From a virus (Duplodnaviria > Caudoviricetes), in the IMG/VR virus record IMGVR_UViG_3300021255_002539, positions 96,001 through 160,000 of that record: a stretch of 64,000 nt of DNA; one strand, 5' to 3'. Below are positions 800 through 58,434 of this stretch, in pieces; position 1 is the first letter of the stretch, and each line of letters starts with the position of its first letter. The translations under genes were made by a program, and so were the position numbers. The notes below the pieces were generated by a model that ran no database searches, had not been told where the DNA came from, and saw nothing but the letters and a program-made list of their open reading frames with translations.

Positions 800-1510
800 A
801 TGAAACCCACCAAACTGACACACGAAGAAGTGCTTGTGATTGACAAGATCATATATGAAGCCAAGATAACCGATTTCGAGCTTCGGAACACCCCAACAGG
901 AAGACAATATTTCTGGGACGGCGAGAACTCCGAGAGGTTGAACATAAAGGACGGGCTGCAGTTCATCTGCGACGCAGCCTGCTATGGATTCGACTTCGCC
1001 CTTGAATTCGGTCTCACCCAACAGGAGATCGACACATGGAACGCCATGATAGACAGATTTGGTCTTTCTGACGAATTCAAGGCAGAAGACTACAAGGAAC
1101 GCGAAATACTGCGCGCCAAGGAATCAACGAGGAAACAGACAATGAAAAAGCTGAACATCACGAAGGAACAGTTCTAGAAATCCAGGTACTTCAAGAACAA
1201 GTATGGAACACTTGAATATGTGTCAGAATCCGGCAAGGTGTTCAAGACCAACAAAGGCAAGATTCTCAAGTTCAAGGAATCCAATGAATATGGTGATGGT
1301 AAATATGGTGAACTTAACGAAAAATTCCATGAGTTCATTGAAGGCAATTATTTGGAGGAACAAAGCCTTGTCGAAGATTGGGAAAAAGATAATACTTGGC
1401 TCTACGATGTAGGAAAAAAGGTACTCGCCAACCAACCATTAGATGTTGCCGATGTGGCAGTTATTGTAGATCTCATTCTTGGCTAGATGAAAGAAAATAT
1501 GGTTTCTTGA
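800..1510 (+). CDS. Modular hypothetical protein (two in-frame TAG read as Gln); internal RBS+ATG at 1142 starts a MKKLNITKEQF module
   Basis: ORFs 800-1177 and 1220-1486 share a frame and are separated only by TAG; the module matches 4326-4640; first TGA at 1508-1510. Confidence 0.7.
1140..1282 (+). repeat. Copy 1 of a ~140-bp coding repeat (47-aa MKKLNITKEQF...KFKES module)
   Basis: 45/47 aa identical to 4326-4466; nucleotide differences mostly synonymous. Confidence 0.9.
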
Positions 1511-1533
1511 CTTTACCTATCCACATAGATCAG

Positions 1534-1572
1534 AATCGACCATCCTTTCGTTGGGGTGGCCGATTTTGTTTT
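1534..1572 (+). terminator. Probable intrinsic terminator
   Basis: AATCGACCATCC...GGGGTGGCCGATT stem followed by a T-rich tract. Confidence 0.6.
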
Positions 1573-1685
1573 GTAATATAATGCTGCAATTTCCAAGTGG
1601 ATAGGTAGATGCGCAACCAACCCCTAGATTCAAAGGAATTTTTCTTGCAATGGACTTGAACAATATTGTTTTTCCATGAGTTATT

Positions 1686-2747: not shown

Positions 2748-2749
2748 GT

Positions 2750-4231
2750 TCAGAACTCCATCTTGGTGATGCACTCCACCTGCCCACCCTTGCTGTCTGT
2801 GAGGGCTATTCCAATTGTCCTCTTGAAGAAGAAGTCGTACCAATGTCGCCTTCTCGCATAGCCCCTGTATCTTGACGATGGAACAAGCTTGTCGAACTTC
2901 TTGACATCACCAACGACATTTACTGGAACTGTTCCTGCCAACGCGATTCCAACCATTGTCTCACCTGACTTCCCTTCGCCATTCAACACCAGACCTGGCC
3001 TAGTCGTGACTATCGCATTGCAGGTGTGACCATCAGAGAGGGTCACTTCCTTCTCGCCGCCGAACATAACCAATGTACCAGGCTCGTATTGCTTGTCGGA
3101 CTTCCTGTATTCTGCCAAGTCTGCCCAGCGGGACCTCAACACAGTACCCACAATTTCCTTGTCGAATGTGGCTTGACCCAAGAACCTGGCGTTGTGGAAG
3201 AACCTACACTCGCCTATGAAGGAATTGTGGGTATAGAACCACGACCGTTCGCCATAGTGGAACTCGTTTCCATATACCTTCAAGACGCCATCCTTGTCGG
3301 GGTGGGCGGCCCTGACATTCTTCTGCGTAGCGCAATGTCCACTGCTCTAATCCAAGTCCTCGTAGTCCTTGTAGTCTATGCCCTGAGTGGACAACTCACC
3401 CTAGTTCAAGAACCTCTCCCTACTGCCAGAGTCCTTCTTCTTGTACACTTTGCCATCGTATTCGGGTATTTCGGAAATGTCAGTGAACTTGGTGTATCTG
3501 CCACCCACGAGTTTGAAGTAGTCGACGCCAGACCGCGGGTTCTGCTTCTCATCCTCCCCAATCTCCTGATATTCGTCCGTAACCAGAGGTTTGATGTCGA
3601 CTTCTCCATATGTTGGCACGTGATCCAGTTTCCAGTTAATCAACGCCTTGATAGCGTTGAACAACCACGCCAAGCTCATCTTTCTGGAGACATAGCCATT
3701 GTGGGAGCCATAGGCAGTAGCACCATCACCCAACCATTCAGACACCTCCAGGTACGAGCGCATGATGTTGTGGCGAAGGGTGTCTGTGTTCAGATTCGTT
3801 GGATCTTCCACTGGAATGTCCTTGGCGTGTTCATCATCGGAAGCATCGTATCCCTCTGGCATTTCGTCGTGTGGCAGAATGGACTTCTGATAGCCCTTGA
3901 ACTTCCTGTAGTCGAATGTGCGTTTCTTTGTGCGCTTAAGGTTCTCCACCGCCTCGCCCCACATGTCCATTTGCCACTTTGGATCAGACTCGTCCTGTGT
4001 ATAGTCCCCAATTGGACACCAATCCTGGTAGAAGTACGCATCATCTACCTTGTCCAATCCATACGACCATATCAGTTGCTTCTGGTAGATTTCGTCCAGG
4101 TTCTCCAGACGTTGCTGGGTCACCTGCTCCTGCGTTGAGCCAGATGGAACTGGATCGTCGTGGTGGTTGATGAACCTGCGAATCTATTCCTCTGGTCCCC
4201 AAAAAGGTATCTCTGAAATTCTGTTAATCAT
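2750..4231 (-). CDS. Tail fibre/spike-like protein with a C-terminal intramolecular-chaperone (peptidase G2-like, ADLAE) domain; 3 in-frame TAG
   Basis: ORFs 3401-4123 and 2750-3283 join through TAG codons; WADLAEY..YEPGTLVMFGGEKEV...ALAGTVPV...IGIAL motif. Confidence 0.7.
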
Positions 4232-4259
4232 GGCTACATTGCTCGTTGTTGTGCTATTC

Positions 4260-4291
4260 TATTTACCATTTGTCAATAATTATTGTAAATA
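4260..4291. promoter_or_regulatory. Divergent pair of GTAAATA late-promoter-like motifs
   Basis: TATTTAC at 4260-4266 and GTAAATA at 4285-4291, between divergent genes. Confidence 0.55.
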
Positions 4292-4710: not shown

Positions 4711-6696
4711 TCAGAACTCCGTCAGCACATTGTATTCTGCCTCTCCATCGTCCCATTCATCCCCATTTGCGAAGTCGAAGGTCTCGTTGATGGCGAAGAA
4801 CTCCCGCTTGCTTCCATGACCCCATTGTCTGTTTCCATAGAACAACTCGTCGTCTGGGATGTCCCTTTCTGTTGCAGCCAATTTCACGACCTTGTGTTCC
4901 TCCAGGTTGCCAAGTTGCGAGACAATGCCCTTGTTCGCCTCCAAGTTCACGGTCTACTCCAACAAGCTCTGGTCAAATGGGGATGTGTACACTACCTTCT
5001 CAGGAAGAACCCTGTCCATCTTCGTCTTGAATGCCTTTACCACCGAGTAGTGTTGGGTTATGACATCAGCAAACAGCAGGTACATTCCCCATATCCATGT
5101 CAGCATATAGTCGTCGTGGCACTTGTCCTTCGCAGCAAAAGTGATTGAGTTCGAGGTGTTCTTCCTGACGAATGTTCCCATCTCGTTCACCAGAAGTTCG
5201 TCGGGTATCGAGATTTCTATTTCGTCGGTCGTTATCAGCTCGTTGAGGAACATGCATGCCTCCAACTTCGTCTTGTTCTTGGACTTCACGCCATAGGTTA
5301 TCTCGCCATACTTGCCAGTTGGGGAAATAGCCTGCTCGTAGAACATTCTGTCCCTGGGGTAGTTGTAGGTATCCAACATGATGTCCACGAAACCAGAGCC
5401 AACGCCATTGTTCTCAACTATGAATGGAGGGAACGCATAGAGCTTCAGGAACTCGTATGTGGCATATCCGAAATCCACCAATGTCGCCTTTGAGCAAGAC
5501 ATACGCGCCACCAACTGGATGTGCTTGACATCTGTGACATCCCAGACATTTGCCACAGACGAGTCGTTGCCAGTTCCCTCAGAGATGTCCCCAGAAGCAG
5601 CATATGTCCTGGTTGGGTCAAACGGCTTCCAGAAGTTCGCGGTTATTTCCTTGTCTGGGTTCTTGGAGAGGTTCAACTGGGCTGGCTTGGGGTAGTTCTT
5701 CAAGTTCATTCGGAAATGCTCTATGTCCTCAGATGGGACAAGCGAGGCGTCGCCAGCAGACTTGAACTCGCACTCAAACTCCTGCAACCACCTATTCATT
5801 CCAATCGTGGCAATCTGCTGCCGCTTCCATTCCTCGTCACGACCAGGAACATCATACCACAAGAATCGGAAAGCCTTCCAGTTCTCAGCCTGCACGATGT
5901 TGGGGTCAGTAGCCTGCTGCCAAGTGTCGTAGAACAGGTTGTTGGAGGTTCCGTTTGGCGTGGATACCATGATTGCCTTTGAGTCCTTTGAGGACGAAAG
6001 CACAGGGAACACGGAAGCCATGAACTCGTCTGCTATTCCTTTAGGAATGAAGGCCGCCTCATCCATCACGAGAACATTGGCTGAGAAACCACGACAGCCG
6101 CTTGAACCAGTTGCAAAGCACCTGATTATCGAATTGTTCTCGAATTCTATGCACTTCTTGTTGTATGTAGTGACACCTATCTTGATTTCGGATGGGCAGT
6201 ATTCATAGCCCAATCTGATTCTGTCCATGATTTCAATGGCTATGTCCAGCTTGTTGCCACATACCATTATTCGCTTGTCTGGATGGTACATGGCATACCA
6301 AAGGAGAAATACTGTGTATATCGTAGTATTATGAGACAGTATGCCATTCGTCAGGTAGAGGTGGTTACTATCGTCTGACAACTAAACATCATACATATGC
6401 TTTGACTTTCCTATGTTGTCCACCTAAACAACTTTCACAAGTCCATCCTTGCATCTAATGTCCAATCCATCAGAATCCTTTGCAAAAACCTGATTGCCCA
6501 TCTTGTCTATGAATATGTGATTGTCTGCACATTCCAATGTAGTGCCATCCGAGAATCTAACCAGGTATGTCTCGTACTTTACGGTCTTTCCGACATACTA
6601 TATGTCGTTCCACACCACATCCCCTTCTTCGTCAAGAGATGCAATCTACCAGTTCTTCAACGAGAATAATCCTATGAACTTCTTAATCGGATTCAT
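4711..6696 (-). CDS. terL: Terminase large subunit C-terminal part, fused behind split-intein C-fragment (T4 gp17-like)
   Basis: With TAG=Gln one ORF runs from ATG 6696 to TGA 4711. It contains Walker B VLVMDEAAF, STPNG, QEFECEF, nuclease DISEGTGNDSS and HDDY. Confidence 0.92.
6328..6696 (-). mobile_element. Split intein C-fragment (123 aa, atypical TerL-type split)
   Basis: MNPIKKFIG...LECADNHIF (block B)...MYDVQL (block F)...LYLTNGILSHN followed by Thr+1; 4 in-frame TAG. Confidence 0.9.
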
Positions 6697-7858
6697 CTTC
6701 ACACCTCGCAATGAAATCCAAGCACTTGGCTATTGCCTACTGTCTATTGCTCTTGTATTCCTCATCTGTCACGACGAGAATCTTGTAGCCCTTTGATGCA
6801 ATTTCCCTTCTTCGCATCTCATCATACTCCTTGTTTACCTCGCCATGCCAGTGCAATCCATCATATTCAACTACACACATCGTTTCAGGTATGCAATAGT
6901 CCAAGTAGAAGCATCTGCCGTTGTCGCGCTCAAAAACCAATTCGTTGTTCTGCTTGTCTCCGTTTAATGCAAACCACGCCTTGTGTTCCTTGTTCGTTCT
7001 CTTGGCTTCAATCTCCCAGAACATCGCCTATGACTCGTAGCTGAATCCATTTACTGGTGGAATGTGCGGACACTTTGATTTGTTGATGTCAAACATCTCT
7101 TGTTCTGACCTATTGTATAGAGAGCGAATCCATCTTCTCTGCCTATCTTCGTAAATTCGCTTACCTTCCTCCTCGCCATACTTCTCAATGCACTTCTCCA
7201 ATGTGAATGTGCGTTGCCGCTCACTCAACTTCTTCTTCGCCTCCTCTTCTGAATACCCTTTGTTGAGCCAATATTCCAAAGATGTCGTATGCACTATGCT
7301 CGCGTTGTTTTTCTTGGCGCGATTGAATGCAGCATCCTCTTTCTGCTCGTCGGTCATGTTTTCATAGCCAACGAAGTTCTTCGAGAATGGCGAGAACTTT
7401 CCACCGTGGTTATAATATGGATTCTTCACTTCCATCAATTCATGATATGCCTTCTTCTGGAATTCCTCGCTATCCGGAAAACACAATCTACACAACTCCT
7501 TGGAATTTACTGTCTTTGGATGTTCCAACTACCAAGGAAGCACACTGTCAAAAAACACATCGAAATCAGTATCGTTGAACTATCTACAGTGTGAAACTAT
7601 TCTATGGAATACATTGAACTGACTATTCCAGATGTTCTACTTGTGCAATTTCCCTATCTTGGCATATACTCGCTTTAGGTACTTCTCAACAATTTCAATC
7701 GCAATTCCTGAGAACTTGGTGGAAGAACCGACTCGTTCACTCAACACCATCCACTCAACATCCGTAAGCCCATGCTCTTTCAATAGATGCTTGCGTATGG
7801 AATTGGACTTGAACTCCTTGCCACAATATGGACATTCTATCTCGATATTCTTAAACAT
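6683..7858 (-). CDS. Free-standing homing endonuclease, Vsr/DUF559-like C-terminal nuclease with an N-terminal Zn-finger (391 aa, 5 in-frame TAG)
   Basis: Three track ORFs in one frame joined only by TAG; CPYCGKEF..HLLKEH; FYLDYC...VVEYDGLHWH...YDEMRRREI...GYKILVV. Confidence 0.85.
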
Positions 7859-7893
7859 TGGTAATTCCCCACTTGTCGTGTTGTCATTACTAT

Positions 7894-8391
7894 TTACACC
7901 TTTCTCCCAAAAAACTTCGCCAACCAATACAACACGCCAATCGGAATTGGAATCTTCAGCCACTTAAACCACCTATGACGAACCCACACTATCGTTCCGA
8001 AGGACACACACTTTCCCACCTAACGTGACGCACAGACAATTGCTCTATTGTTGTCCTGGATGAACTTCAACAACTCGGCCTGCTTTGGATATGGATTGAG
8101 CGTCACCAAGCCATCCTTCAACGACACAATCTTGAAGTACTTGCGGCAGAAATATAGAATGTCCTGCTTGCATTTCCTGATTTCCCTGGCTCGACGCTTG
8201 AATTCCTCTGGAGTCAGAATCTCCTTCTCGCCGGCCTTCTTGATTGAAGCAAGCTCCCCAGTTGGATTGCCCGACTTCTTCTGTTGCTGAACCAACTATG
8301 CAGACGCCAATTGAGGGCCTTGTGGCTTTTCCTACCCAAGATCCAGATTCTCGAACTTGTCGATTGTCGGCTTCTCTATTCCTAATCCCAT
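7894..8391 (-). CDS. terL: Terminase large subunit N-terminal part plus split-intein N-fragment
   Basis: KCKQDILYFCRKYFKI, PYPKQ, ASR(TAG)VGK = Walker A start, then Cys1 of the intein; ends TAA at 7894-7896. Confidence 0.9.
7897..8010 (-). mobile_element. Split intein N-fragment (38 aa)
   Basis: CVSFGTIVWVRHRWFKWLKIPIPIGVLYWLAKFFGRKV: block A C-x-x-x-x-T-x-V and an I-x-I-G-x-L motif. Confidence 0.85.
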
Positions 8392-10609: not shown

Positions 10610-13600
10610 TCACTGTTGATATGGTTCGTAGACATTGTTGATGTGCTCGGTGTCCTTTGCGATTCCGAACATCATCTTGGATATTCTCCACGCGCAATAT
10701 CTTTCGGGTTCAGGAAGGGATCCAATAACCTTGTACTTGTACCACGCAATCAGGTCCAGACCTGGGTGGTTGGTCTCGAACACATCACCCAAGTTGTAGT
10801 TAGGTGGCAGTGCTGAAGTTGATCCCATTCTGCAGCAATACTCCCATTGTGCCTCTGTTGGAAGGTCGAAGTTGATGCCAGCTTTCTGGCCAGAATACCA
10901 ACCAACTGCCTAACCTGGTTCATATGATATGACCTCGCCACCATCCACACCATCTATTTCAACCTTCCTGGGCTTAGTCTCGTACACGACCTTGTTATTG
11001 AGAATGTCCATGAAGGAAGTCGTTCCAGTCCTTGAATTCATCTGGAACTCGTCGCCCTTTGTGTTCCTGGTGAGTTCATCATATGTTATGGTGTATTTCG
11101 CACCATCGCTTCCACCGACTTGCTTATATACCTGCCCCGTTCCCCTGACCTCGTTGTATGTGGCGTAGTAGTATGGGCGGGTGTCGTCAAGTGGCTTGTA
11201 CACTCCATCTTCAGTCAACTCCCGAATGAAAGTATCGTCGTCGTCCACAGTATATCCACCGCGCACTTGGACAACCACTGGATCAACTTCGATGATGTCG
11301 TCTTCCCACGCAATTCCCCTTCCTCCGGGTCTTGCCTTGTTTCTGTATTCCTCCTTCAATTGCGCCCACTCGTCCTTCTCCCACACGGACAAGTACTTCC
11401 AATAGGAACTCTCGATTTCACGTATGTTGGCACTCAACAATCTTCTTGCTTCAGATTGCGATGGTGTTGTGCCATTTGCCCTCAACTTGATGTAGCACCA
11501 CTGGGCAATCGTCAGCTCGAATGGGTCGATGAAGAAGTGCTTGTTGCGCTGGTATTTGCTGTTTTCTGTGTCTCCTGCCTTTATTGCGTACAAGTCATGA
11601 TCCACATCAGTGTTCTTCTCGACATCGACCCTCTTCTTTTGGTAGGAACCACCATTGCCCAGTGTCACGGTGATGTGGTCGTCAATCGCTCCATCTGGAT
11701 TGGATTCTATATCACGGTACTTCCTGGCTTCCATGTCAGTGACCAGGTCGTAGTCGGACGAATGGCTGCCCATCTCGAATATATCGAACTTTCTTCCTGA
11801 TATGCTTGGGATTCTCAACAACAGCAACTTGTCCTTCTTGTAGAGATCCGTGTTGATGTCGGGCAATGTCCCAAAAAACTTCATTGGGAACTTCCCTGCC
11901 GTGGATTGTTCATTGGAGTTCAAGTCTATTATGCACGAATTGTACGAGAACGAATTGGCAGACGACAAGCTCTCGACTTTTGTTCTGGCAGAGTTGAATA
12001 TCTGATCCAAACCAGAGACATCTTGAATTGGCAATGCTGCCATTTTCACGGAACTGTCCTTGTTGGCGTAGTCCACGACACTCACCCCATTTCCATCAAC
12101 CATGTTCCCAAATACCTGGGTTTGGTATCTATATGCCAATTGAACGGGGGCGGATTTTTGTATATGTTCGTACAATTCATCCATTTTCGGACATATTGCA
12201 GTCCATATGGCGGAATATGCTGCCTTGCACTAGACGGTTGGGTTTTCATTAACCGTAAACCCGTTAAGTTCAATTTCCGAACTATTTGCCAAACAATATT
12301 GAACCCACTTCCAAGCCTTTGGATAGGCGCGGGGTTGGGTTGGGAGATGTTCGCTGTCGAACAAATTCTCTCCGACAATTTGACCATATACTGACAAGGC
12401 ATCGTAATTGGCGGGGAGGTTTGTGCCATTGAATGGTCCATTGAGTTTCCATATTTTGTTGTCCAGAGGCTTGATGGAACCATTGTTTCCGGATGTATCC
12501 TCTCCAAATATCTTTTCATTTCGCGTTATTATCTTCAAATGACCAGTAACAACCTTGGTTGATTCGTTATTGTATGCGTACTCCAATGTAACCATGTCGG
12601 TTGGAGGGGTTTTGAATATGTCACTGGTTTCTGTCTGATACGACGGTATCCCATAACCACTCACCCGGCCGCCGTTTGAATCCAGGTTTTCACTGTATAT
12701 CATGCTCTCGCCAGACACAAAATACCTGAACATGCAAAAGTGCGATCTACTTGAGTTAATTTTATTATTATTGTGCAGGTCTATACAAACACCCAAAATC
12801 TCCATGTTCTCGTGATCCAGGAAATTCTTGTGGAAATAATCAAAGCTACGCCTGTCGTCGGAATTCCAATATGTGCTTGGGTTGCTGTGTGGGAGATACA
12901 CAATGTGCTTTTCCACCCAGTCTTTCAGACCGTCCGACCACCCGGCCGGTGGTTGTGGTCGATAAGTCAAATAGTAGTCTCTAACCTACTTCAAGAAAGC
13001 AACATCAATTGCCTGCCCGTCTGGCAACAAATCTATTCCCTCAAGTACAGCTGCATCGATGTCAGGATTACTCTTCTTCAAATAATTCACAATTTTTTCC
13101 CGCCAGGCCGCAATCGAAATTCCACCATTGGTGATGCTCAACCCACTTGGCAACCCAATCAGGAAATACTTGTATCTATCTTTCTACTTTTCGTTTTTAG
13201 CATCATTGAGGAATGTATCTATGTCATATGTTCTTTTGCCTATTATAGTGTGGTTGGATGTATATGGATTTTCAAGTCCAAATATCGTGGGTATTGCAGA
13301 TACCCATCTGGAGTTTATCGTACTCTATTTGTCTTGATAGGGGATTGGATTCCTCATTCTACCATTATTGCTCAGTATCCATTGCAGATTCGACACGACC
13401 AATGTACCGAAGTCCCATTTCGTTCCTGCCCATTCCTCCTTCTGCTCCTCATGGCAATCATTCCACAAGGCCTTTTTGTCGGTTCCAGTTGGGATAGAAG
13501 CATTTATCGTGCTCTGCCAATCTTCAGGAAGTTCAATCTTCAACATGTCCTTGAACATGTCTATGTCGTTGTATGGGAACAAATGTGTTGGGTCAGTAGT

Positions 13601-16600
13601 GTCGTCATGTACTGGATGGGGTGCGTCAGAATCCATCACGAACATATACACATTGGTTGGATCTGTGGTATTCGCCATGGAATCCATCAACCTGTAGTAG
13701 CCAATTGTCTTTGCCATTGTGTAGTCGATGGACTTTATCCTGTCTTTCTGGGCCTTTTTTGCTGTTGTGGTTATACTTTCTATCGTATAGCCCAGTTCAG
13801 CGAACCTTCCTTGTTTTATGAGTTCTTTCTGTTCCTTGGTCAACAAGTTCTCCGCCGAACAATCTGCCAATGGGGAATAGAATCCATTCAAATCCAGATC
13901 TTCTATTTCCAAGTCTCTGGTCTACGATAGACCCCCAACTCTCTTGTAATCCCAATTCAAATAGCCATTCTCCAATGTTGTCTGTCCATTCAATCCCATC
14001 CTGGTTGGGATCGGGATCGTCCAAGTTATCTTTTGTCCACCATTCTTTTTCTCCAGTTCAGAACCCCTAAAGGTGAGTTCTGTTATCCTTTGCTTAATCG
14101 GTAGAATTGATGTGATTGGTCCAAGCCAGGAGTTATACAAGTATTCCAATGAAGAAGAATATTCATTGCCGTCCAACCCGATTTCTGTCAAGTAGTCCCT
14201 AACCTAGGTCTTCAAATCTTCATCTCTGAACAACCTCAGTGAGTGGGGGTCTGGTGGTTGTTGGGAATCGTTCAACTTGCTTCCAGCATCAACATAGAAT
14301 GCCAGTTTGTTCCCACTCATTGTGGTTGGGAACGACACCAATTCGAAATCGAAATCCCTGAATTCGGCGTCGTTTGTGCCTCCAAAATAGTGTTTTGCCA
14401 CACGGGAGAACGAGTTGTCGAACTCGTTTGAGAACACGAATATCAACCTGGGGACATTCTTTCTGAACATGAACGCCTAACCCCTGTTCCATGGTCTGGC
14501 ATAGAAGTATCCATCCCTGATAAGCTTGTCCAACATGTCGCAGACGGGTTCGCAACCAGCCCACCAACTGGACAAGGTTCCATTGTCGTTCTACGCAAAT
14601 GGCCATTCGTATATGTCAGCCTTCTCCTTGGAGATGTCGTAGGTGAATAGGTTATAATTGTGCTTGAATATGTCCCCTTTCGTCGCATCATCTGAATATT
14701 TTTTGTAGTTGTCCCCCGATACATTGCCGTATGTCAAAACATCTCCGGATCTATATACTGGAACACCACAAAAGATGTCGACTTTCTTTTCAATTTTTTT
14801 GGAATAACGGGTGATTGTATGCCCCTTCCATGGATCACCCCCACCACCACCGATGAATCTACCGCTATGAGATGATCCACCAGAACTACCACCATCCCTC
14901 AATGACATTGTTGAAATGGATTCATCGTCGCCCACCCCAAACGACATCTTCTTCTGTTCGGGAAGTACATTGGATTTGACAGTTCTGATTGACGCACCAT
15001 CCTGACGGCCTTGCCATTCTTCCATGTACTGTTTGAACTTGTAGCACAATCCACTAGGCTGTCCAGATACATCCGTGCTGTTGTTTATCTTTTGTATTTT
15101 GCCGGTATGGTATGTACCATTAATAATATCGCGTTCTTCATCTTCTGCCAGGTCTATCCAATCCTTGCATTCAGGTTTCATTTCCCCGTCTTTGTGGTCT
15201 CGACCCTATGTATATGGTGAATTTTTCCAGAATGAGCTATGCCAGCTATGCCAATCCCCGGATTTTGTTGTTCGATTAGTAATTTTGTATCTGCAATATG
15301 CTGTTTGGCTGACATCCTTGACTTTCTGCCCACACATCATGTGAATTGTCGGTCCCAGGAACAAGGCGGATGCAACATGGCACTTGTCCTTGATGTCGTC
15401 GTTGTCGTTGCCGTCAGTGACTTTGCCAGCATATAGCTTTACGATTTCATTGGCTTGTTCAACCATCTTCTGAATTTGGCTGTCGTTTGATGCCGATGCG
15501 TCGAAGAGGAAGAACAAGTCAACAGGTCCAGTTACAACAGTGGAACCAGATTCGCCATATGCAGTGAATGTCATGGATGGTCTGAACCCAACATTCTCAT
15601 GTGTGGAGTTCTTGGACTTGTTCTGTTTTCTGCCTATGCTTTCCCTGGCTGGGGATATCGTGTTCCTCGCGAATTGATCGAACGCACCACCCTTGATGAC
15701 CTTTTCTGTAGTTGTAATATCCCCCTTGGTTCCAACGATGTGGTTTACAGACGAACCAGCGTGTCTATCGCTCCAGTCGTCCCTCACGAGTTCCCACACA
15801 TTGCCGAGCATGTCGTACATCTTGATGTCTGAACTGGGGGCATTCAATTTGCCAACCCTGTGAATCATGTAGTCGTTGTAGGACCACTCGTATCTCCAAT
15901 AGAGGCTTGGAACAACCTGGAATGTTATGCCCTTCATGTCCTCCACCGTGAGATCGTGTACATCCTTGTCCATCGTCTCCATCGAGGTGTATACTGGGAC
16001 AACCTGCTTGTTCATCACAGTTTGTTGTATCCTGCGAACCCATCTGTTCGTTACATCATCTGGGTGATATTCAGCAAATGGATACATCTGGTCCAGGTCA
16101 ACCAACTGGCCAAACCGCTCTGTCGTGTCAACTAGGCTCTACTGGAGTGTCTGGAAGTCTCCAATTACATATGAGGTTGGGAGGTCGCCATACTTGTGCC
16201 CCTTGAAGTAGCCATGCAGGTCTTCCTCTCCTGCATTTGGTTGGTCTGGCCTTATTCCATCCTCGTCGTCTGAGGCATCCATTCCTGCCAGGGACAGAAC
16301 CCTAAACGAGTCTGTGCTTTCCATTATCTCCTTGTAGGTCAATGACGCTCTGGCCATGTCGTTTGACACGAGTTGGCTGAAGGTGCTGTACTTGTTGCTC
16401 AACCTGCGCTTTTCAGCAGCAATCTCGTCATTTGTCAACCTCACATCCCCAGTGAACAGAACGAGCGAGGCCTGATGCTCCCTGGCGTTCCTCTCCAGTA
16501 TGGATGTCACCTCTATGAAGGAGTTTGTCCACTTCACCAGGCAAGGTTCTCCATAGTTGGTGGAGATGTGGTCTATGTCTCCGAATGTGCTGCGCTGTCC

Positions 16601-19600
16601 TCCAAGCGTCTTCTGCCTCGCCTTGAATGTCCTGTAGATGCCCTTGACAATCTTCTTGGTGTATGTCTCCAGCTGGGTCCAGGATGTCATATCGTCACCC
16701 AGTTCCCTGTTCCTGTTCTTGAAGTACTTGATGTAGGCGTAGTGCCGAACCACATTCCAGAGGTTCCACACAATCTGCCTATTCTCCATCGAACCAAGTA
16801 TGTCCTTGTTCAAGTCCCCAGGCACGGCCTTTGCCACCATGTCTGTCTCACCATTGGAGTACTGTCCCATGAAGTACTTGTCGGCAATTGGGTCTTCGTG
16901 TTGGTTCGTTCCAAAGTCGTTGCTTGGGTGGTGTACCTTCCACTTCTCGTCAGTTCCAGCGTAGTTGGGATCGAACGCCCCCTTGTACACATTGCCAGAG
17001 TTGTCTGTCGTCAGAACGGCGTGTCCATTCGCGTCCTTCGCGAAGTCGACTCCCAGGGTATGGGCGACCGCATGCCACCTCTGCTCGTCCTTCACGATTG
17101 GCTTGTGTACCTCTTCCCCAGTGGCAGTAACAGTGGTCTCCTCGTCCTGCCTCTCGTGTGCGCAACTCCAGCACCAACCACCCTCTTGGTAGTTCAACTT
17201 CGCGCTGCTGGACAATCCATAGCAATCCACATCTGGACCGTTGTTCTTTACGCCCCTGTTGTCCCACCAGAACACATATGGCATTATGTCCTCAATCTCC
17301 ACCACCTGATCAATCTAGTCCATTGGCTCAACCATCGTGATGTAGAACCAAACGGAATCCTCGTCGAAATCGTCTATCGCATGTGCCTGACCCAGGTTGT
17401 ACTGGTACTTTGGCGAATTCACATAGGAGCCCGTCATGTCATAGTCGTCAACCCAATCCTGCAGGGGGAACCTGGGATTGTCTGGGAGGTTTTCGTATGC
17501 AGATCCATAGACGCCATTGTAGGTGTCTGGTTCGTGGTCCTGGTTGGTGTCCAACATCGTCAACTGCTTAAGTGTGTTGAGCGAAATCAAGTTGTTGTGC
17601 AATTTGGAGAGGATTCTGAGGTTGTTGTCCCCATGGTGATGGCGCGCCAGGAACTCGCAGGAATCCACCATGTCGCCGAAGTTGGGGTCAGCGCGCCTGT
17701 CCATGAAGGACTGCTCGAATATGACGCCATTTATGTGGTTGGAGGTGGTTGGGAATGCGCCAGAAGTCAAATCCAACATGTCACTGTACACTTCGCCATT
17801 GCGCCCCTTGTTGAAGAACGGCTGCATGAAGTATGTCCAATCCCTGTTGTTGTACAGCCAGCACCATGTATTGGCCGCCTTGTCCTCCCTCGTTGTTGGG
17901 TCGATGTATATCCTCTGCAGGTCAGAATCCATCTGCAGGAAGTTGCTGCCACACACATGGTTGTGGTGGTCGTAGGAGGATGGAACATACAGCGCGCCCT
18001 CGTTGTACTCCATGTCAACCATCGTCTTGGATGGGATTGTACACCAACCGAAAACGCCATAGTCGTTCTTCTCGTCGCAATCGCACTTCAAGGTCTGACC
18101 CTGACAATCGTCGAATATGTCCCTGACCTCTGGCATCGCAACTGGCCTGTACTTCTTCACGGTGGATGTGAACGTCTGAACCTGCTTGTTCGTCCTCGCA
18201 ATTGGATTCAACTTGTGCTTGATGAAGTCGGTTATGTCTGTTGGGGATTGCACAGAGGTGTTCTCGTACAGGCAAATTGGGCTGACGACATACATCATTT
18301 GCTCGTCTGCCAACTCTGGATGCAGTCTTTGACTTTGCTCTGCCCCAGAATCCCTTGTCTTGTTGACCCCCAACCACTCCTTCTTGTAGTCGTAGAAGTA
18401 GTGGAAGTCGTTGTACTGAACGCCAGTAATCTCCACGTTCACTGGGCGTATTCTCCCCTGGGCATATTCGCCAGAAGTACAACATATCAACCTGTCTCCC
18501 TGAACTTGGTTTGCGGCATGGAAGTTGGAGAACTTCAACTCGATGGTTGGCTCAAACGATATCCACTTCTTGTCGTCCTGGTTGTGCCAAACCTGATTGT
18601 CGTCTGGTCTCTCGCACACAATCTTGTCCTCGGATCCAGCTTGTTCACAAACCACCTTGTCCCCCTCTCCAACGCACATTATGTCAGAGCCAGTTGTGTA
18701 GCCATACCACCAATTGGATGGCTCGGGGACATCAATCTTGAGGAAGTACTCCTGGTGCGCGATGTCCAGGTTGATCTTGAGCAAGGCATTCAACAAAACC
18801 TCAACGTCGCCTATGTCCATTATCGACAACTGACGGAAGTCGTTTTCCTGCTACTTGTATGTTGGTTCCCCATACATGTCGACCAGCATCTTCACATATG
18901 GGCAATTCCACAGTTCCTCGAAATGCTTACCACTTGCAGTTGGGTCCAATCCACACAACCCACAATGAAAACTGGATTCGGTTGAGTCAACAACGAGGTT
19001 GGAGCAATCAGAAAACACATCCTAGTCAATCTACGACTGTTCAACCTCCACGGGAATTTCGTTGTCTTCTTGATGCTCAATGGATCCAAGGTCCATCTCC
19101 ACAACCTCGTCGTAGACAGCGACAAACACCATGTCAGAAAGCACCGTGAAGGATGAGGACAAGTTGCCAGACTCCAGCAGCCAATATCTGAACTTGAACT
19201 GGTGTCCATCATCCGTAGTGTAGTGGTTCTGAATGTGGAAGTTTGGAATTCTGCAGTTCTGAACGACATCAAACCTCTGTTCTGTCCTGGTCCCACCCAC
19301 ATCCATGTACTTGAACACGACATTGAGCATGCTGTTCTTGATTTCAACGACAACAGCCTCGTTCACAACGCCGTATTCTGGCATTTCTCCATTCTCGCAA
19401 ACAATTGGTTCTGATGTATCACCACACACAATTGGCTCGGCGTCTTCTCCACATACCACAAACTCGTTGGAATCGACGCCACCTATGTAGCTGCCATTTG
19501 GAATCGTCCAACCACCAAACTTGAATTCAGTATCCACCAGTTGTGGATCGTGGTCTGGAACGACCATTTGGTTCTTCTTGTTGTCTATCAGAACCTCGCA

Positions 19601-48953: not shown

Positions 48954-51900
48954 TCAACCAACTTCCGAATATCCCGAATTGGCGTCTGGTACTGGCGTGG
49001 TCTGTTCGCTTCCTGGGTCTCCACCAGCAACAGCAACTGCAACGGGCATGCCATTCTTGTTCCTGTCCTTGAGCTTGTTGGTCTCTGTGGCAAGTCCCTG
49101 GCGCATCACTTCAAGTCCATCCCTTACTGCATATATGGTCTTCGCGCTCTGTAGAAGCGAACCTGCAGCCTGCATCGCCTTGTCAAGTGGGATCATCACT
49201 GGTCCTTCCTCAGAGACCTCTATTCCATATTGCGCAAGTTCCTCCACCGACATTGGAGACCTCGCGCTCCAGTCAATCTTGCGCTGCTTGCGTTCGACAC
49301 CCAATGGTATCCTCTTTATGCCATCCTCTGGCATTCCATGCATCTTTCTGTAGTACCTCTACCACTCCTCCCATGTATACTTCCGCAATCCTGCCTTTTC
49401 CAACTCTTCCTCGCTTTTGCCACGGGCCTGGAGTTCCCTTCTCTTCTCCATGTGCGCATACCATGCCTTCTACATGGCGGCGGTGTCCTCCCCAATCTTC
49501 ACCTCTATGAAGCCGTCGCTTGATATCTTCGCGGAGTAGTCCAATATCTCCTGTTCGCGCTTCCTTTGGCGGTCCTCCTCTTCCTTCTTGGCTTGCTCCT
49601 CCATCCTCTTCTTGCGGATGCGCTCGGCTGCGGCCTTGTCTTGCGCATTCAGTTCCAGTGCCAGTTCGTCTTCGTTGATGACCACAGACTTGTTCATCTC
49701 AACCCACTCTGGGGAGAACATGTACAAATCCTTCTGGAGTCCATTCGTGGCTACCTGCAATATCGTTGGCCGCTCTCCGACATTGAATCCAAGTCCTGCC
49801 TTCTGCCCCTGGTTGTGGTACGCAGACACCATCTTGGACAACCTGAGCGCAGAACTCCGCTTTGCATTGTCCTCCCTCTCCTTCTGAAGTTGCTCTGGGG
49901 TCTTTGGGTGGATTTCCCTGTATTGCCTCTTGAACTCATCGAATGTCATGGACTGATACCCCATTCCAGACACCTGTTGCTCTGTATGACCTGTGGCAAG
50001 CAAGCTCCTGCGCTTCTCCTGATGCTCGTAGTACTTCTTGAGCAAATCTTCGTCGGCGTTGATTGTGTCTTCTGGCACTGGTGGATTCGATCCTGGTGGC
50101 AGGACAACTTGACCAACCTTGTCTTGGTTCTCCTGCTTCTCCTTCTCGGTTGGTTCCTTGGAGACGAATTCGCTGTCCTGCACATCCACTTGGCCAGAGG
50201 GTGTTGTCTTCACTTCCTTGAACTCAAACAGCTTGTTGGTGTCCAGCTCGTCCTCCCCAGTGACGCTTTTGATTCGCTTCGTCTTCGCGTCCCCCTGGGA
50301 AATCTGGTTGAACGACTGCCTTGATGTCTGCTTGTCGAACAGGTTACCCTTGTTTAGCTTTTCTATGTACTTCGTCACATCCGCCATTCCACTCGATACG
50401 ACATCCTTGTTGCTTCTGTCGTACTTCACTATCTTGTCCGCAAAGTCCTGAAGTACATCGCCCTGGTTGTTGATGATGTTCGACCGTTCCTTGTTCAATT
50501 GATCAAACGCCTCAATCAATGTCTTGAATGCCTCTTCGTCGTCACGGTCGGGGTCAGACATCATGGACCGTATGTTGTCCAGGAACTGACCTATGTAGGA
50601 CGATGGCATCAACATCACTGTCTGTCCATCTTGTGGGTTGTAGTAGAAGAACGCCGACAGAAGTCTCTGGGAGTTGTCTGGATCCTCCAACAACTGCCTC
50701 AATATCTGTTGCGCCGCTATTGGGCCAGTGCTGCCCAACTCCCACACATCCTCCAGGAACTGGTTGTAGTTCTCAACCTGTTGGGAGTTGTACTGGTACA
50801 GCTCGTTCATCGCCTCAATCTTCTTCGCTATGTCCCCACCTGCCTTGTTCGCGTATATCCTCTGATACTCCTGGAAGAACTTCAAGTTGTCCTGAACAGT
50901 ACCCTTCATCTGCAGACCCCTTACGGCAATCCTGGTCTGCCTCGCCTGCTCGCTGTTCCTCTCGGTTGGATCCTCCTGAAGCGTCTCGTTGTTCACTCCC
51001 CTGAATGCCTGACCAGAGAATATGCCCTTGATCTGCGCCCATATATCCTTCCATGGTGCGGTTATCGCGTCTATTATCCCACCAAAGTCGCCCTTTATCA
51101 GCTTCATGAAGCCGCCCGCCAGACTTCTCCACAGGGCAGTACCCAGGTTGCCTATCAGCTTTCCAACAGCAGTTATCGCATTCACTATACCCATCACAAT
51201 CTTCATGAACTTCGTGTCCCTTATCCAATGCCAGAGCTTTATGCAGAGGCCAGCAATCATGTGTATTGCCATTCCAAGCCAATCACCAGCCAGGAACATG
51301 CACAGAACGTCGATACTGCTCTTGCCCGTCGCCTTGAGCATCTTCTTGATTCCAGCCTTGATCATCCCAATGAACTTTATGCCCCACACTATGAACTTCA
51401 CTATTATGCCCTTTGGGTTCGTTATCCAACCCACGACCTTGACCAGGGCGGCTCCAACCATCTTCGTTATCTCCCATATGGCAGAGAACAGCTTCACCGC
51501 TCCAGACACGAACCCAGACACCATTGGCACGATGTAGTCCCTGAAGCCACCAACGAGGGTCTGCATCCACCCCAACAACTTGTCCTTGAACAAGAAGAAG
51601 ATGCCACCTATGATGAGCGCAATCGTCAAGGGGTTGAACAAAACCCGCTTGAATAGACCCCAAGTTGACTTCAAAACCTTCTTCGTCTGATGGACTATCG
51701 CAGAAATTGCCGACAGAATCCTGTCCACGGTCGACGAGACAAGCCACTTCATGAAGTTGATTGGAGCCATCACAATTCCACCCACAAATCCAAACACTGT
51801 CGTCAATATGGTCGCAATTGGCCTGAGGATGAACCGATATGCCTTGTCGATGGCACCAGCACCTATTATCTTCATCCAGTTGCCAACCTTGTTGACGAAC

Positions 51901-53276
51901 TTGCCCATGAAGCCAAACAACCTGGCGAAGAACTGAAATGCGTTGAACGCCAGCTTCTTGATTCCAGCCCACAGCTTCTTGCCAACGAACTTAATTGCCT
52001 TCCACCCCATCTTCGTCACGAATACTGCAGGATTGAACTTGCTTGCCGCTGTTATCAAAGCCTGGCCAATTCCAATCTTCCTGACTGTGCCTATTGCGGA
52101 CTTCACGCCCCTGCCAACAGCCTTTGCTGCCCCAATCGCCGCCTTCCCAACGAACACTGAGGCCTTGACAAATGCCTTGGCAACAAACTTCACTGTCTTG
52201 TAGATTGCCTTTACAGTCTTCTTGATGGCCCGACCAACCTTCTTCATGACACCCAACGCGAACTGAAGTGCCTTCTTTACTGCACGATACGCCTTCCCGA
52301 TGAATGACCGCGAAATCTTGTTCTTGATTCCAGTGGACATGCCACCAATCTTCTGCCCAATTGATGACTTCTGCCTCTTTTTGCCAAAAACCTGCTTTCT
52401 GTTTCTGACACCAAATGGATTCACACCAATCTTCGACTTTCCTGATGTCATCTTGTCGTCCTTTGCGAGTACACCAGACCACTTGTTGTCGAACACCAAA
52501 CCACCAGTCTTTTGCCTCTGACGCCCACCTTCAAGGTCTCCATTTACCTTGTCCACCAATGTCTTTACCCCAGAAACAGTGGTTGCCATCTACTGACCTT
52601 GACCTCTGCGCCTGTCATTGAGTTCGCCTATACGGTGGTTGAGGGCGTCTATCTGCTCCTGGAGTTGGGTCTTTGTGCTCTATACCTGCTCGTCGAACTT
52701 CTGGATTGTGTCTTGGTTGTCCTTGATTCTGTCCACGAGGGTGGTTATCTGATGGTCGCGCCTCAGATACTCGCTCTGCTCGTCCAGTTGCTTCACTTGA
52801 CCATCGACATCAGAGAATATCCTGAATATCTATGCCCTCTGGGTCTTCAACAGGGCGATTGCCTATGTCACCCTGTCAACAATCTCCCGGTGTTCCTGCG
52901 TAGACACGGCCTCAACAACCTCAACCTTCGGCTGGTCAGATGTGGTCTTGCCATTCTGATTCTTGAACACACACCCTCTTTTCACTAGTTCGTCAGCAAC
53001 CCAATTGGTGAACTTGTTCTCGTCCAACTTGTCAGAAAGCAGTTTCTTGATGTTGTCGTAGAGGATGTTGGTCAGAACATCTTTGTTGAAGTCCAGATTC
53101 TGCTCGAACTACTTCGATGCGAACTATACGCAGTTGTCGACGAGCTGGCATATCAGTTCGTCTATTCGCCACTTGTGGTTCTGCCCATTCCCATTCTTGA
53201 CCGCGTCAGCAGTCTGTTGCGACGGCTGTGCGTCGTTCATGGGGTGGCGCTGCGTTATCTTGCTGTCCTGGTTCAT
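48954..53276 (-). CDS. Tape-measure/baseplate-hub-like protein (1440 aa, 8 in-frame TAG)
   Basis: One frame from ATG 53276 to TGA 48954 interrupted only by TAG; coiled-coil N-terminus and long amphipathic Gly/Ala/aromatic helical repeats. Confidence 0.7.
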
Positions 53277-55092: not shown

Positions 55093-55096
55093 GCAA

Positions 55097-56128
55097 ATGA
55101 AATTCTCGATTACATTCAAATACAGCAATGTCACCTTCAAGAACAAGGAGACGAAGGAGACCATTTCCTACGACACCAAGGCAGAGGGCAACACTTTCAC
55201 CTTCGACAATGTGGACGAGGATGTTGTTCTTGGCATCGTGAAGGGCATCAAGGACAAGAAAGCCGCGCAGGTCTTTTCCTACGACGACTTCCGCACGAAC
55301 TTCATCAACGTGATGGCGAGGAACAAGTGCAAGGAACTCTACGACAAGCTCGACAAGGGAGGTTGGAAGGTCGAGGACATAGCAATTTCCAACATAACGA
55401 TAAAGGACTTGGAATTCACCAAGCCCACGATGAACGCAAGGGAGGCAATAACAGTGGAAAGCAGAAAGATGGTGGTGCGCGAAAGTGAGAGTAGTCTATT
55501 GGACAAGGAATACCACGAAGTGTATCTAAATGGAGTGGAAATCCAGGTAAAGATGAGGGAAATCGGGGAGTTCATGAGGAACGAAGGTTTCGCCGACCAC
55601 TTGGATATGATGAACAGGCTCAATGGCGTCAAGAAGGAGATGCAAGAAATCATGGACGACCTGGAATGCGCAGTAGACGACATCGGGCAAGACGAATATG
55701 TAAACAGCGACGAATTCCACGACAAGATTGACCGAGACGCACAGGCATCCCTCGACAGAGGAACCTATTCTGAAAACAGGACGATTGTGAAAGAGGGTTC
55801 TGAAAACATCGAACCTGTCATCTTCAAGCGGGACAGACACGATGGAGAGGTCGTGGCGTTCTTCCCAGAGACGATGTTCGATGGCTCTGTGAACAAGGGA
55901 AACATCATGTGCTACGCCCACAACGGTCAGAGTTCCGAGGCAAGCATAGAGTACTTCCAAGATTGCAGACCCTGCAAAGACGAATCTGAATACGCAGACT
56001 TGCTTGCCGAACTCGAGGACTACTTCATGCAGGACCCAGATGCTGGCGACATACAGTTAAAGGTCGTGAAGAAGCCCAACTATGGAAGGGGTCCAAGCAG
56101 AAGGAAGATGTGGCCTTCCAGGTTTTGA
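55097..56128 (+). CDS. Modular hypothetical protein
   Basis: Domains separated by VES..RES and SEN..KEG linkers. Confidence 0.7.
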   Translation: MKFSITFKYSNVTFKNKETKETISYDTKAEGNTFTFDNVDEDVVLGIVKGIKDKKAAQVFSYDDFRTNFINVMARNKCKELYDKLDKGGWKVEDIAISNITIKDLEFTKPTMNAREAITVESRKMVVRESESSLLDKEYHEVYLNGVEIQVKMREIGEFMRNEGFADHLDMMNRLNGVKKEMQEIMDDLECAVDDIGQDEYVNSDEFHDKIDRDAQASLDRGTYSENRTIVKEGSENIEPVIFKRDRHDGEVVAFFPETMFDGSVNKGNIMCYAHNGQSSEASIEYFQDCRPCKDESEYADLLAELEDYFMQDPDAGDIQLKVVKKPNYGRGPSRRKMWPSRF

Positions 56129-56148
56129 TAACCAAATGCATACACAAC

Positions 56149-58434
56149 ATGGCGACGAACACTGACAAACTTGCACCAAGGATAATCGTGAACGAACACG
56201 ACATCCCATCCCCTGAATCCAGAATCAGGAGGAAGCCCGTAACATTGATGTTCGGCTTCTCCCCCATTGGACGCACATGCGAGATGGTCGTGTGCAACAC
56301 CATCCAGGAGATAACGCAGGAGTTCGGTCAGCCAGAGTCAGCACCAGAGAAGTACTTCATAGACTCTGCCCAGAGGTTGGTTCAAGAAAACGCCACTGTG
56401 TTGATGACCCGTCTGCCATACGACAACGACCAGTCCCACACCGTGAAGTATGTGGACTACAAGGTTGAGGATCCAATATCCACCAGGGACATCGTTACTG
56501 TCCCACAGGAGACCTTGATGCGCAAGAAGGACGACAAGGCGGTGACTGTCCTCAAGGAAATGCACAATCTGGACAGCAAGATGACGCAGGTTCAGAGGAT
56601 ATCCCAAGTCTCCAACAACCTCGGCGAACACATCCACAAGATGACGAACGAGGAACTGGTGGAGCTTGAGATAGACCCACAGGCGAACCTCGATGCCAAC
56701 ACCTTCAGAATCGTGGACATCAGGGGAGAGAGGTATGGGGTTGGTGCTGCCAAGGCTGCCTACACTGGCATATTCCCTGTTGTCGTGACATCCCCAATGG
56801 CTCTGTACTACCAGGGGAGCATATAGAACACCACAGATCTGGATTCAGCGATGTCGATGATGGATCTCTCAGAGGGGATTGAGATGTCCACAGAGTGGTT
56901 CAGGACAGCCGACCCAATAGACGCCGACACCAAGGACACCCAGGCTGAGATAGTGGCAAGCATAGAGCAGCAAATCAACTTCGATACCACCACCAACAGG
57001 TTCCACAGAAGCGACTCCTTCCAGGACACTTGCGTGAAGGGGTTTCCGAGGGTTGGATTGACTGCCCCAAACACTCTGGACAGAACCCACTTGAACGAAA
57101 TTGGGGTATTGGTGTGTGGCATCAGATGGAACGACGACGAGCAGCGCACCAACTTGGTCGTGCTGGAGTCCTTCTTTGGTAGACTGGGGGCTGGCAGGAA
57201 TTCCGTGGACAAGAAGATCAACTCGCAGTCCCAGTACATCAGAATGTACAAGAATGTGTCAATCCCCAACCAAACAGACTTCTTCGTGGTGAACGACCAG
57301 AAGCTCACCTCGCTTGGAATGGCGTCCGAGGAATGCCAGAAGTTCGTGAACTACAAGACCTCGATAGTCGATCCAATCACCTATGTCCTGGAAAGCATCT
57401 ACTCTGATGTGGATTCGCTTGAACTCGATGTGATATTGGACGCGGGTCTGTCCTCCACGGCGTTCATGGCATATGTGGCGAAGAACCAATATGGCGAGTC
57501 CTACGAGCAGAACGAAAAGGTCAGGACAAGGATAGACTGGGGTTCGGGCGAATACCCAATCGACGAGTATGTGGAGAAGTACGCCCTGGTCTGGAACAAC
57601 ATGACCAAGCTGTTTGGGGACTTCGTGAAGAATGTGCGTGGGGACTGCGTCTACATTGCCGATGGACCCAGAATCCTGAATCTGGAGCGCAACTACCCCA
57701 TCTCCAACTACACGGAAATCGACAACTCAGAGCTGTTCAACAAATACCTGCCCCTGTTCAATGGCTACACCAACAACTATGTGGCGAGGTACTGGAACTG
57801 GGTGTTCATAGAGGACATGCAGTGGATCAACAGGGGATTCTGGGTGCCTGGCTCTGTCGTGATGGGAAGTCAGCTGGCCGTGAACGACCACGATGGGCAG
57901 GTTTGGTACGCACCAGCAGGTCAGACCAGAGGATTGGTAGATGGCGCGTTCGATGTGAGTGTGAAGACAAAGGCCTACAACCAGGAGAACGACTTGCTCT
58001 ACTCCAACCAATGGAACTTCTTCAACATCTACCAAAACGAGGGCGTGGTGGTTGAGGGGCAGAAGACCCTCCAGACGCGGAAGACATCACTTGACAGGCT
58101 AAATGTGCGTAGAATGGTGTGCTGGATCAAGCAACAAGCCAGAATAATCGCAAACAGGTACAAGTACGAGCCACACACCAAGACAACGAGAGATGGGTTC
58201 AGAGCAGAGATAGTGGCGATGCTGCAATAGATACAACGCACCAGTGGCATATCTGACTTTAGGGTTCTGTGCGACGAGACCAACAACACAATCGAGAGCA
58301 TCGACCGTCACGAACTGTGGTGCAAGATAGCCATCAAGCCCATAAAAGCGGTTGAATATATATTGATAGACCTTGACATAATCAATGGCAAGGTCGGAAT
58401 GCAAGAAGGAAATGCTGTGATTGTCTAGCAGTGA
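56149..58434 (+). CDS. Tail sheath protein, T4 gp18-like (3 in-frame TAG)
   Basis: APRIIVNEHD, FGFSPIG, WYAPAGQTRG, GQKTLQ..LDRLNVRR; the conserved DFRVLCDETNN..IKPIKAVEYI lies after the TAG at 58228. Confidence 0.92.

Follow-up and report, generated by a model that had tools for sequence, protein, structure and literature searches.

In-frame TAG codons probably read as glutamine in a 414-kb T4-like jumbo phage, with a candidate suppressor tRNA of non-canonical form

Introduction

Are the TAG triplets that lie inside the genes of a jumbo phage stop codons and, if not, which residue do they specify, and could they serve a regulatory role? The question is raised by a 64,000-nucleotide stretch of DNA (hereafter, the window), which covers positions 96,001–160,000 of one 414,060-bp contig (IMGVR_UViG_3300021255_002539) of the IMG/VR database. 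A preliminary description of the window had proposed that TAG encodes glutamine (genetic code 15), pointing to in-frame TAG at conserved glutamine positions in three families. The analysis reported here supports this proposal, although one of the three motif arguments, that from the glycosyltransferase family GT11, fails. On sequence evidence, we put the probability that the phage translates TAG as glutamine at roughly 85%.

The IMG/VR record has direct terminal repeats and a completeness rating of 100%; the contig ends share about 107 bp, and the guanine-cytosine (GC) content is 48%. Homologs of T4 gp17, gp18, gp20, gp23, gp4, gp15, and gp55 are present in the genome, together with a replication set, and identify it as a very distant T4-like jumbo phage; when the portal protein was compared with those of GenBank phages, its identity was below 25% to any of them, and none was close. 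Two relatives were located via their portal loci, and their complete genomes (418,068 and 433,895 bp) were fetched whole. The 414,060-bp genome is referred to below as G000 and the relatives as G001 and G002.

Results

About 69 genes contain TAG as a sense codon

Genes were called in the complete genome under four codes, using a periodic-Markov caller of our own with interval scheduling rather than Prodigal. Code 15 gave the highest coding density (0.807, mean gene length 300 amino acids), followed by code 11 (0.769, 229 amino acids), TAA as sense (0.761, 248 amino acids), and code 4 (0.689, 283 amino acids). The ranking was unchanged in both related genomes, with code 15 the best in all three, and for the window by itself the densities were 0.822 (code 11) and 0.892 (code 15). 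Re-calling under tables 11 and 15, a check that the preliminary description had suggested, thus favors table 15, although the genome-wide gain is small (about 4 percentage points). A plain comparison of open reading frame (ORF) lengths between codes was dropped as misleading because TGA is the commonest off-frame stop, and reading it as sense opens more frames than any other choice. Under code 15, 69 of the 372 genes (about a fifth) carry 199 TAGs, or 1.8 per 1,000 codons.

A codon-usage scan of the genome identified 40 TAG triplets with a same-frame coding signal on both sides, compared with five TAA and five TGA; at a stricter threshold, the counts were nine, zero, and zero, respectively. 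The frame of about 11.6 kb with 20 TAGs and neither TAA nor TGA that had been noted earlier was found as described and comprises 3,888 codons (Table 1). Alignments to Pfam and PDB entries pass through the TAGs in the LpxR-like protein, tail sheath, terminase, and portal. The TAGs are also spread like sense codons, as 5.5% of them fall within 20 codons of the stop (4.6–7.5% for nine control codons), and therefore there is no sign of TAG terminators masked by short extensions. This lack of a TAG excess at 3′ ends agrees with the earlier statement that genes end in TAA or TGA. Some 69 genes thus carry TAG as a sense codon, and no use of it as a terminator was detected.

Were TAG a true stop, with the fragments representing separate genes, pseudogenes, or rare read-through products, the essential single-copy terminase, portal, and sheath genes would be cut within conserved domains, and the 3,888-codon frame free of TAA and TGA would have to be due to chance, which is not possible; moreover, TAGs do not pile up near gene ends, and the pattern is common to three complete genomes. 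What this explanation has in its favor is that code 11 still gives 77% coding density, and that a few TAGs lie exactly at the C-terminus of the ortholog with TAA or TGA 1–10 codons later (e.g., the sheath TAG at 58426 and that of gp46). The latter cases are ambiguous, and they account for 17 of 1,027 alignments, where we estimate roughly nine by chance. We regard a true stop as vanishingly improbable. Another ambiguous case is the ORF that ends at 30680: read-through of its TAG at 30672 does create the ATGA overlap described before (TAG ACA TGA, with ATG at 30677), but the overlap has no value as evidence because read-through adds two codons only.

Glutamine is the residue most consistent with the TAG columns

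Reciprocal-best orthologs among the three genomes provided 673 columns with TAG in one genome and a sense codon in another. The preliminary description had named a test of the TAG columns as a check; over these columns, glutamine was the maximum-likelihood residue. The partner was Q in 26% of the columns (background 3.3%), a share that climbed to 48% at a local identity of at least 0.6. E, K, D, and S came after Q, which is also the profile of glutamine columns in those alignments. With an empirical substitution matrix, glutamine was ahead of glutamate by 392 nats and of lysine by 454 nats over the 673 columns; it was the best residue for each of the three genomes alone and for the 55 columns of the window alone. 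As a control, the right residue was returned for 12 codons, in 50 of 50 subsamples of 250 columns each. The glutamine codons opposite TAG were CAG in 126 cases and CAA in 50 (genome usage, 2,476 CAG and 1,301 CAA), and therefore the signal is not merely that of the one-step mutational neighborhood.

Standard-code homologs were examined at individual TAGs. In the LpxR-like outer-membrane lipid A deacylase, the TAG falls on a conserved glutamine, as had been claimed: it aligns with Q57 of Salmonella LpxR (3FID), and the column is Q in 114 of 114 full-length homologs, down to 47% identity. Likewise, the counterpart of the TAG in the terminase Walker A motif (...ASR[TAG]VGK) is the Q of T4 gp17 SRQLGK. 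The C-terminal domain of the tail sheath does run past the TAG at 58228 (residue 707), since the Pfam Phage_sheath_1C match covers residues 659–755; the alignment to T4 gp18 also crosses this TAG. For the GT11-like glycosyltransferase, the string GNTCL[TAG]IY is in the sequence, but a glutamine at a conserved motif position was not confirmed. The Pfam GT11 match spans residues 104–215 only, the protein is without a solved relative, and the one homolog recovered carries E at the motif column; the TAG columns of this protein are uninformative on the residue.

Several points tell against the glutamine assignment. Q is found in 26% of TAG columns and in 40–44% of the columns of ordinary glutamine codons in the same genes; T4 gp18 has G at the column of the sheath TAG at 58228; opposite the four GT11 TAGs, the sole homolog shows E, K, W, and T; the genes were called with a crude home-made program; and the case is built from sequence. 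The GT11 residues would suit a different amino acid (Glu, Lys, Ser, Tyr, Leu, Trp, or pyrrolysine), as would the rank of E and K as the next most frequent partners and the long variable arm of the CUA tRNA of G002, a trait of type II tRNAs. However, glutamate and lysine lie hundreds of nats below glutamine, which is also best for G002 alone; the E/K/D/S profile is that of glutamine columns, the LpxR column is invariant Q, and the Walker A column is Q. We consider any residue other than glutamine very improbable.

A candidate suppressor tRNA is located by synteny

ARAGORN identified 28 tRNAs and a transfer-messenger RNA (tmRNA) in G000, nearly all of them in one array at 362–371 kb. No credible tRNA(CUA) was found in G000 by ARAGORN in its default, with-introns, or relaxed modes (the relaxed hits lie among hundreds of false calls), and the Rfam tRNA model added no CUA tRNA. 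However, G001 and G002 each have a tRNA(CUA) apart from their tRNA arrays, and the flank of each maps to positions 298,038–298,594 of G000; immediately downstream of these in G000, synteny located a candidate suppressor tRNA of 79 nt (Table 1). At minimum energy it folds into a clean cloverleaf that has an acceptor stem of 7 bp (U1-A72, G2-C71), discriminator G73, an encoded CCA, a D stem of 4 bp, anticodon and T stems of 5 bp each, and a variable region of 4 nt; the anticodon loop, CUCUAAC, gives the anticodon CUA. The T loop has 8 nt (GUGGCAAA), and the D loop (AAUGCCUAAUA) is without GG. Upstream is TTTCGTATAATTGA, with a TATAAT box, and downstream is a strong terminator. Of the two elements that the preliminary description suggested searching for, a CUA tRNA is therefore present as a non-canonical candidate, whereas no release-factor gene was found: the RF-1, PCRF, and class Ic synthetase domains (PF00472, PF03462, and PF00749) had zero matches in the complete genome.

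IMG/VR pattern scans for homologs of the candidate recovered L085:2353-2431 and L096:7026-7104, to both of which ARAGORN is blind as well. In the three-way alignment, 98.7% of cells are paired, and compensatory double changes occur at seven pairs across all four stems (at most one in shifted registers). The loops are near-invariant, and the D-loop UGCC is complementary to the T-loop GGCA in all three sequences. The nearest canonical tRNAs to the suppressors of G000 and G002 are the phages' own tRNA-Gln(UUG), with weak scores. This type of tRNA may serve other recoded phages.

The CUA tRNAs at the syntenic locus differ greatly among the three related phages. That of G001 (268,611–268,687, L079) is 77 nt long and near-canonical, and that of G002 (410,487–410,576, L080) is 90 nt long with a long variable arm and has tRNA-Sec, below the cut-off, as its top Rfam match. 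L085 and L096 are IMG/VR contigs of 6.9 and 50 kb with a GC content of 39–42%, in which ORFs also merge under code 15 (e.g., 728 amino acids with six TAGs). Two other candidates were rejected. L085:2262-2346 (+), immediately upstream of the L085 suppressor, was considered as a second, tandem CUA tRNA; it is cloverleaf-like and has a CUCUAAU loop and an encoded CCA, yet its fold is no better than those of shuffled sequences. The tRNA at 367,853–367,926 (−) of G000 has a CAU-like anticodon, not CUA; it scores 43 bits with Rfam, has an anticodon loop of 6 or 8 nt (GUCAUA between CGCCC and GGGCG), and is assigned no anticodon by ARAGORN. The tmRNA of G000 (tag GNDYRMAA; 368,037–368,369, −) lies within the tRNA array; the tag in G001 is GNDYSMAA, and ARAGORN reports no tmRNA in G002.

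The 297.9-kb cloverleaf may not be the element responsible, and suppression could instead come from a suppressor of the host or of a co-infecting phage, or from a modified host tRNA-Gln or release factor 1 (RF1). The literature has many recoded phages without a detectable suppressor, and the candidate is unseen by ARAGORN and Rfam and is without the canonical elbow nucleotides. This explanation is improbable given that two relatives have canonical CUA tRNAs at the syntenic position, that the locus has its own promoter motif, terminator, and encoded CCA, and that the stems covary across three genomes with all three loops conserved.

TAG is enriched in late-type genes and behind a late-type motif

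The T4 homologs with functions in replication, recombination, or nucleotide metabolism are TAG-free in 15 of 16 cases (rnlA, rnh, dda, NrdD, NrdG, gp47, gp61, UvsX, UvsW, gp43, gp52, gp39, gp41, cd, and segB), whereas seven of the eight structural homologs carry TAG (Fisher's exact test, p = 1.8e-4). The counts are two in gp4, three in gp15, four in gp20, three and one in the two sheath paralogs, and five and one in the pieces of the terminase large subunit as called by the gene caller.

The same division is seen for promoter-like motifs. A late-type motif, GGTAAATA, is upstream of 21 of 69 TAG genes and 19 of 303 TAG-free genes (p = 2e-7), while TATAATAT precedes none of the 69 TAG genes and 40 of the 303 TAG-free ones. 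The early-type motif GTATAATTGAA was found 18 times (0.3 expected); of the 14 genes that follow it directly, 13 have no TAG. It also precedes the candidate suppressor tRNA and the gene for a gp55-like late sigma factor. In the window, all four early motifs are ahead of TAG-free genes (GTATAATTG before NrdD, UvsX, and two others), and three of five late motifs are directly upstream of TAG genes. Here, TGGTAAATA stands ahead of the giant ORF, the ORF of 1,440 codons, that at 2750–4276, and the LpxR operon. The gp55-like gene itself carries TAG at codons 24 and 26, and its orthologs in both relatives carry TAGs too, at other positions.

We propose that these features could form a timer. The CUA tRNA would be transcribed from a sigma-70-like GTATAATTGA promoter, of a type that otherwise appears ahead of TAG-free replication and nucleotide-metabolism genes. 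The phage has neither a glutaminyl-tRNA synthetase (GlnRS) nor a release-factor gene. Host GlnRS would charge the tRNA with glutamine, as the identity elements known from E. coli lead us to infer, and the charged tRNA would then beat host RF1 at UAG. The TAG genes are predicted to be mainly late (terminase, portal, the two sheath paralogs, gp4, gp15, and the giant virion-type proteins) and lie preferentially behind the GGTAAATA motif, which resembles the T4 late promoter, while the gp55-like factor itself would need read-through of two TAGs. Because both the late genes and the gp55-like gene carry TAG, neither transcription nor translation of the late set could proceed until the suppressor is there. 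This would be the timing-gate model of Borges et al., here wired into a T4-like cascade. The full proposal is that a T4-like programme has the code change as its master timer, in which an early suppressor tRNA must build up before the gp55-like factor is made and so locks late transcription and translation, and that the suppressor belongs to a tRNA family with a rebuilt Watson-Crick UGCC:GGCA elbow invisible to current finders. We offer it tentatively, as a possibility somewhat short of even odds.

Some findings sit poorly with the timer. gp46, an early-type gene, has one TAG, near its end, and the major capsid protein (gp23-like) has none, which fits TAG avoidance in the most highly expressed late gene. 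The promoter classes are drawn from motifs only. With 20 TAGs in one gene, near-complete read-through is required, and no explanation was found for how RF1 would be defeated. The candidate tRNA scores nothing with ARAGORN or RF00005, even at E ≤ 10; it is without the usual GG/T-psi-C elbow, having neither the canonical G18 G19 of the D loop nor a 7-nt T loop; and function, charging by GlnRS, and expression early in infection are all putative for it.

TAG may also encode glutamine with no regulatory role, CAG having drifted to TAG, once a suppressor had been captured, in weakly constrained, fast-evolving genes that are late structural ones by chance. Of 695 aligned TAG columns, no more than 22 have TAG in both genomes; TAG sites therefore turn over fast, and a neutral-drift reading of the gene bias stays alive. 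It is further favored by the lower conservation of TAG sites than of ordinary glutamine codons, by the TAG-free capsid gene (the most abundant late protein), and by the different columns of the gp55-like TAGs in the three phages. On the other hand, the TAG rate differs about 30-fold between replication-type and structural T4 homologs, TAG is strongly associated with promoter class, and all three gp55-like genes retain at least one TAG. We consider drift without a regulatory role less likely than not.

Other features of the window

The features discussed above, together with their neighbors, are listed in Table 1. For the two giant proteins rich in TAG, searches of PHROGs and Pfam returned no function; the sole functional clue for the larger one is one kinase-like PHROG stretch, and the 1,440-codon protein is without a family match.

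Table 1. Positions of the genes, motifs, and RNAs discussed in the text. Coordinates refer to the window unless marked as genome positions in the 414,060-bp contig.
Feature	Coordinates	Strand	Remarks
ORF	800..1510	+	2 in-frame TAG (1175, 1484)
ORF	2750..4276	−	About 500 codons, 3–4 TAG
TGGTAAATA	4260-4268	−	Before ORF 2750..4276
Intein C-part (...SHN) and terminase C-terminal piece (TTIYT...)	4711..6765	−	6 TAG
Zinc-finger/DUF559 (Vsr-like) endonuclease	6683..7963	−	Free-standing; 5 TAG; between terminase pieces, in another frame
Terminase large subunit, N-terminal piece	7894..8391	−	Ends in Walker A SR[TAG]VGK (TAG 8020-8022), then short intein N-part
Terminase ATPase N-domain paralog	8395-9114	−	239 amino acids, 0 TAG
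Giant ORF	10610..22276	−	3,880–3,888 codons, 20 in-frame TAG, 0 TAA/TGA
TGGTAAATA	22285-22293	−	Before giant ORF
NrdD homolog	22367..24580	−	TAG-free; behind early-type GTATAATTG at 24627-24635 (−)
NrdG	26258-26773		TAG-free
Lower-GC stretch	28000-32000	+	GC 0.44
ORF	29790..30680	+	TAG at 30672, TGA two codons on; ATGA overlap with next gene; ambiguous
GT11-like glycosyltransferase	31381..32115	+	4 TAG (residues 17, 75, 106, 199)
gp47	37371-38552		TAG-free
LpxR-like lipid A deacylase	40606..41532	+	TAG 40798-40800 = residue 65
gp61	41537-42601		TAG-free
UvsX	47644-48807		TAG-free
ORF	48954..53276	−	1,440 codons, 8 in-frame TAG
TGGTAAATA	53283-53291	−	Before ORF 48954..53276
Tail sheath (gp18-like)	56110..58434	+	TAG at 56824, 58228, 58426
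gp55-like late sigma factor	genome 79,305-79,961	+	2 TAG
Major capsid protein (gp23-like)	genome 204,600-206,198	+	0 TAG
Candidate suppressor tRNA(CUA)	genome 297,902-297,980 (= L078:202-280:-)	−	137.9 kb past the end of the window

The terminase locus at 4711–8391 (−), where the large subunit is broken within Walker A between GK and TT, resembles a "fractured gene" whose intein is split in an atypical way. The intein part on the N-terminal piece is 38 amino acids long and begins with CVSFGT, and the TTIYT of the C-terminal piece aligns to T4 gp17 immediately past GK. The paralog of the ATPase N-domain, which follows an early-type GTATAATTG motif and lies directly upstream of the real terminase, matches the PHROG terminase large subunit at E = 1e-16; it has a hydrophobic N-terminus and a Walker A of GRQVGIS (Lys to Ile).

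More than 100 LpxR homologs with 47–79% identity were found on metagenome contigs, several of them of 260–430 kb, which suggests that large phages of this kin often carry the gene. A phage-borne LpxR implies a diderm host; the LpxR scan of genome contigs gave only a 29% match in Oceanicaulis and thus no host clue. In the lower-GC stretch, GC and AT skew flip sign, the genes are on the plus strand and include that of the GT11-like glycosyltransferase, and two ORFs were passed over by the gene caller; it may be an acquired glycosylation island.

Discussion

Recoding of TAG to glutamine is known in phages; what is distinctive here is its sparseness, the GC content of 48%, the lack of an RF2 (release factor 2) gene, and the suppressor with an altered elbow. 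Table 11 fragments the terminase, portal, sheaths, and giant virion proteins; this clade of 414–434-kb genomes needs table 15 for annotation, host-range, and structural work. Usual screens can miss such genomes, since the density gain is about 4 points, the GC content is not low, and ARAGORN and Infernal find no suppressor. The timer proposal shows concretely, and in a form open to testing, how recoding could be wired into an early-to-late cascade like that of T4, and the candidate tRNA would be an example of the non-canonical suppressor tRNAs predicted by Borges et al. If the proposal holds, rebuilt-elbow tRNAs could explain part of the roughly 60% of TAG-recoded phages reported without a suppressor.

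Comparison with known systems

The recognition elements of E. coli GlnRS include U1-A72, G2-C71, G3-C70, G73, and G10, and E. coli supE (glnV44) is an amber suppressor tRNA-Gln(CUA) that is only partly efficient. The phage candidate shares with supE the CUA anticodon, U1-A72, G2-C71, G73, and G10, but has A3-U70 rather than G3-C70, in addition to its 8-nt T loop and a D loop without GG. The partial efficiency of supE also contrasts with the near-complete read-through that the phage would need.

As the preliminary description had stated and the literature confirms, code 15 recoding is known in gut and rumen phages, and it has been validated by proteomics in crAss-like phages (PMC9523058). Borges et al. 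(bioRxiv 10.1101/2021.08.26.457843) reported that recoded stops are enriched in structural and lysis genes and that a suppressor is detectable in only 40% of the genomes that recode TAG, and they suggested that non-canonical tRNAs had been missed. The phage studied here resembles the recoded gut phages (Lak megaphages, crAss-like phages, and the clades of Borges et al.) in that in-frame TAG is concentrated in structural or late genes, stops are TAA and TGA, a tRNA(CUA) is encoded by the phage, the code-change element is itself in standard code, and a gate on late expression is proposed. It differs from them in its GC content, as the model of Borges et al. begins with low-GC genomes; in the absence of an RF2 gene, although RF2 and GlnRS occur in some clades only; in a suppressor whose elbow escapes standard detection; and in its T4-like backbone with TAGs in the late sigma factor itself. 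Its recoding is also sparse, and the gain in coding density is below the threshold of at least 10% at which a 2026 survey of jumbo phages (PMC13037316) called an alternative code. In that survey, about 60% of the recoded genomes had a CUA suppressor tRNA, and the missing ones were ascribed to the host or competing phages. The rumen and gut jumbo phages surveyed share with the present one code 15 and a Portal_GP20 fragmented under code 11, whereas here the "missing" suppressor appears to exist in a structurally atypical form.

The likeness to T4 consists of the homologs of gp55, gp17, gp18, gp20, gp23, gp4, and gp15, the replication set, and two classes of promoter-like motifs, set against a portal that falls below 25% identity to that of any GenBank phage. 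T4 uses the standard code and late promoters of the form TATAAATA, whereas the present phage has (A)TGGTAAATA as its late-type motif; its genome is depleted of exact TATAAATA, with four copies found and 16.6 expected.

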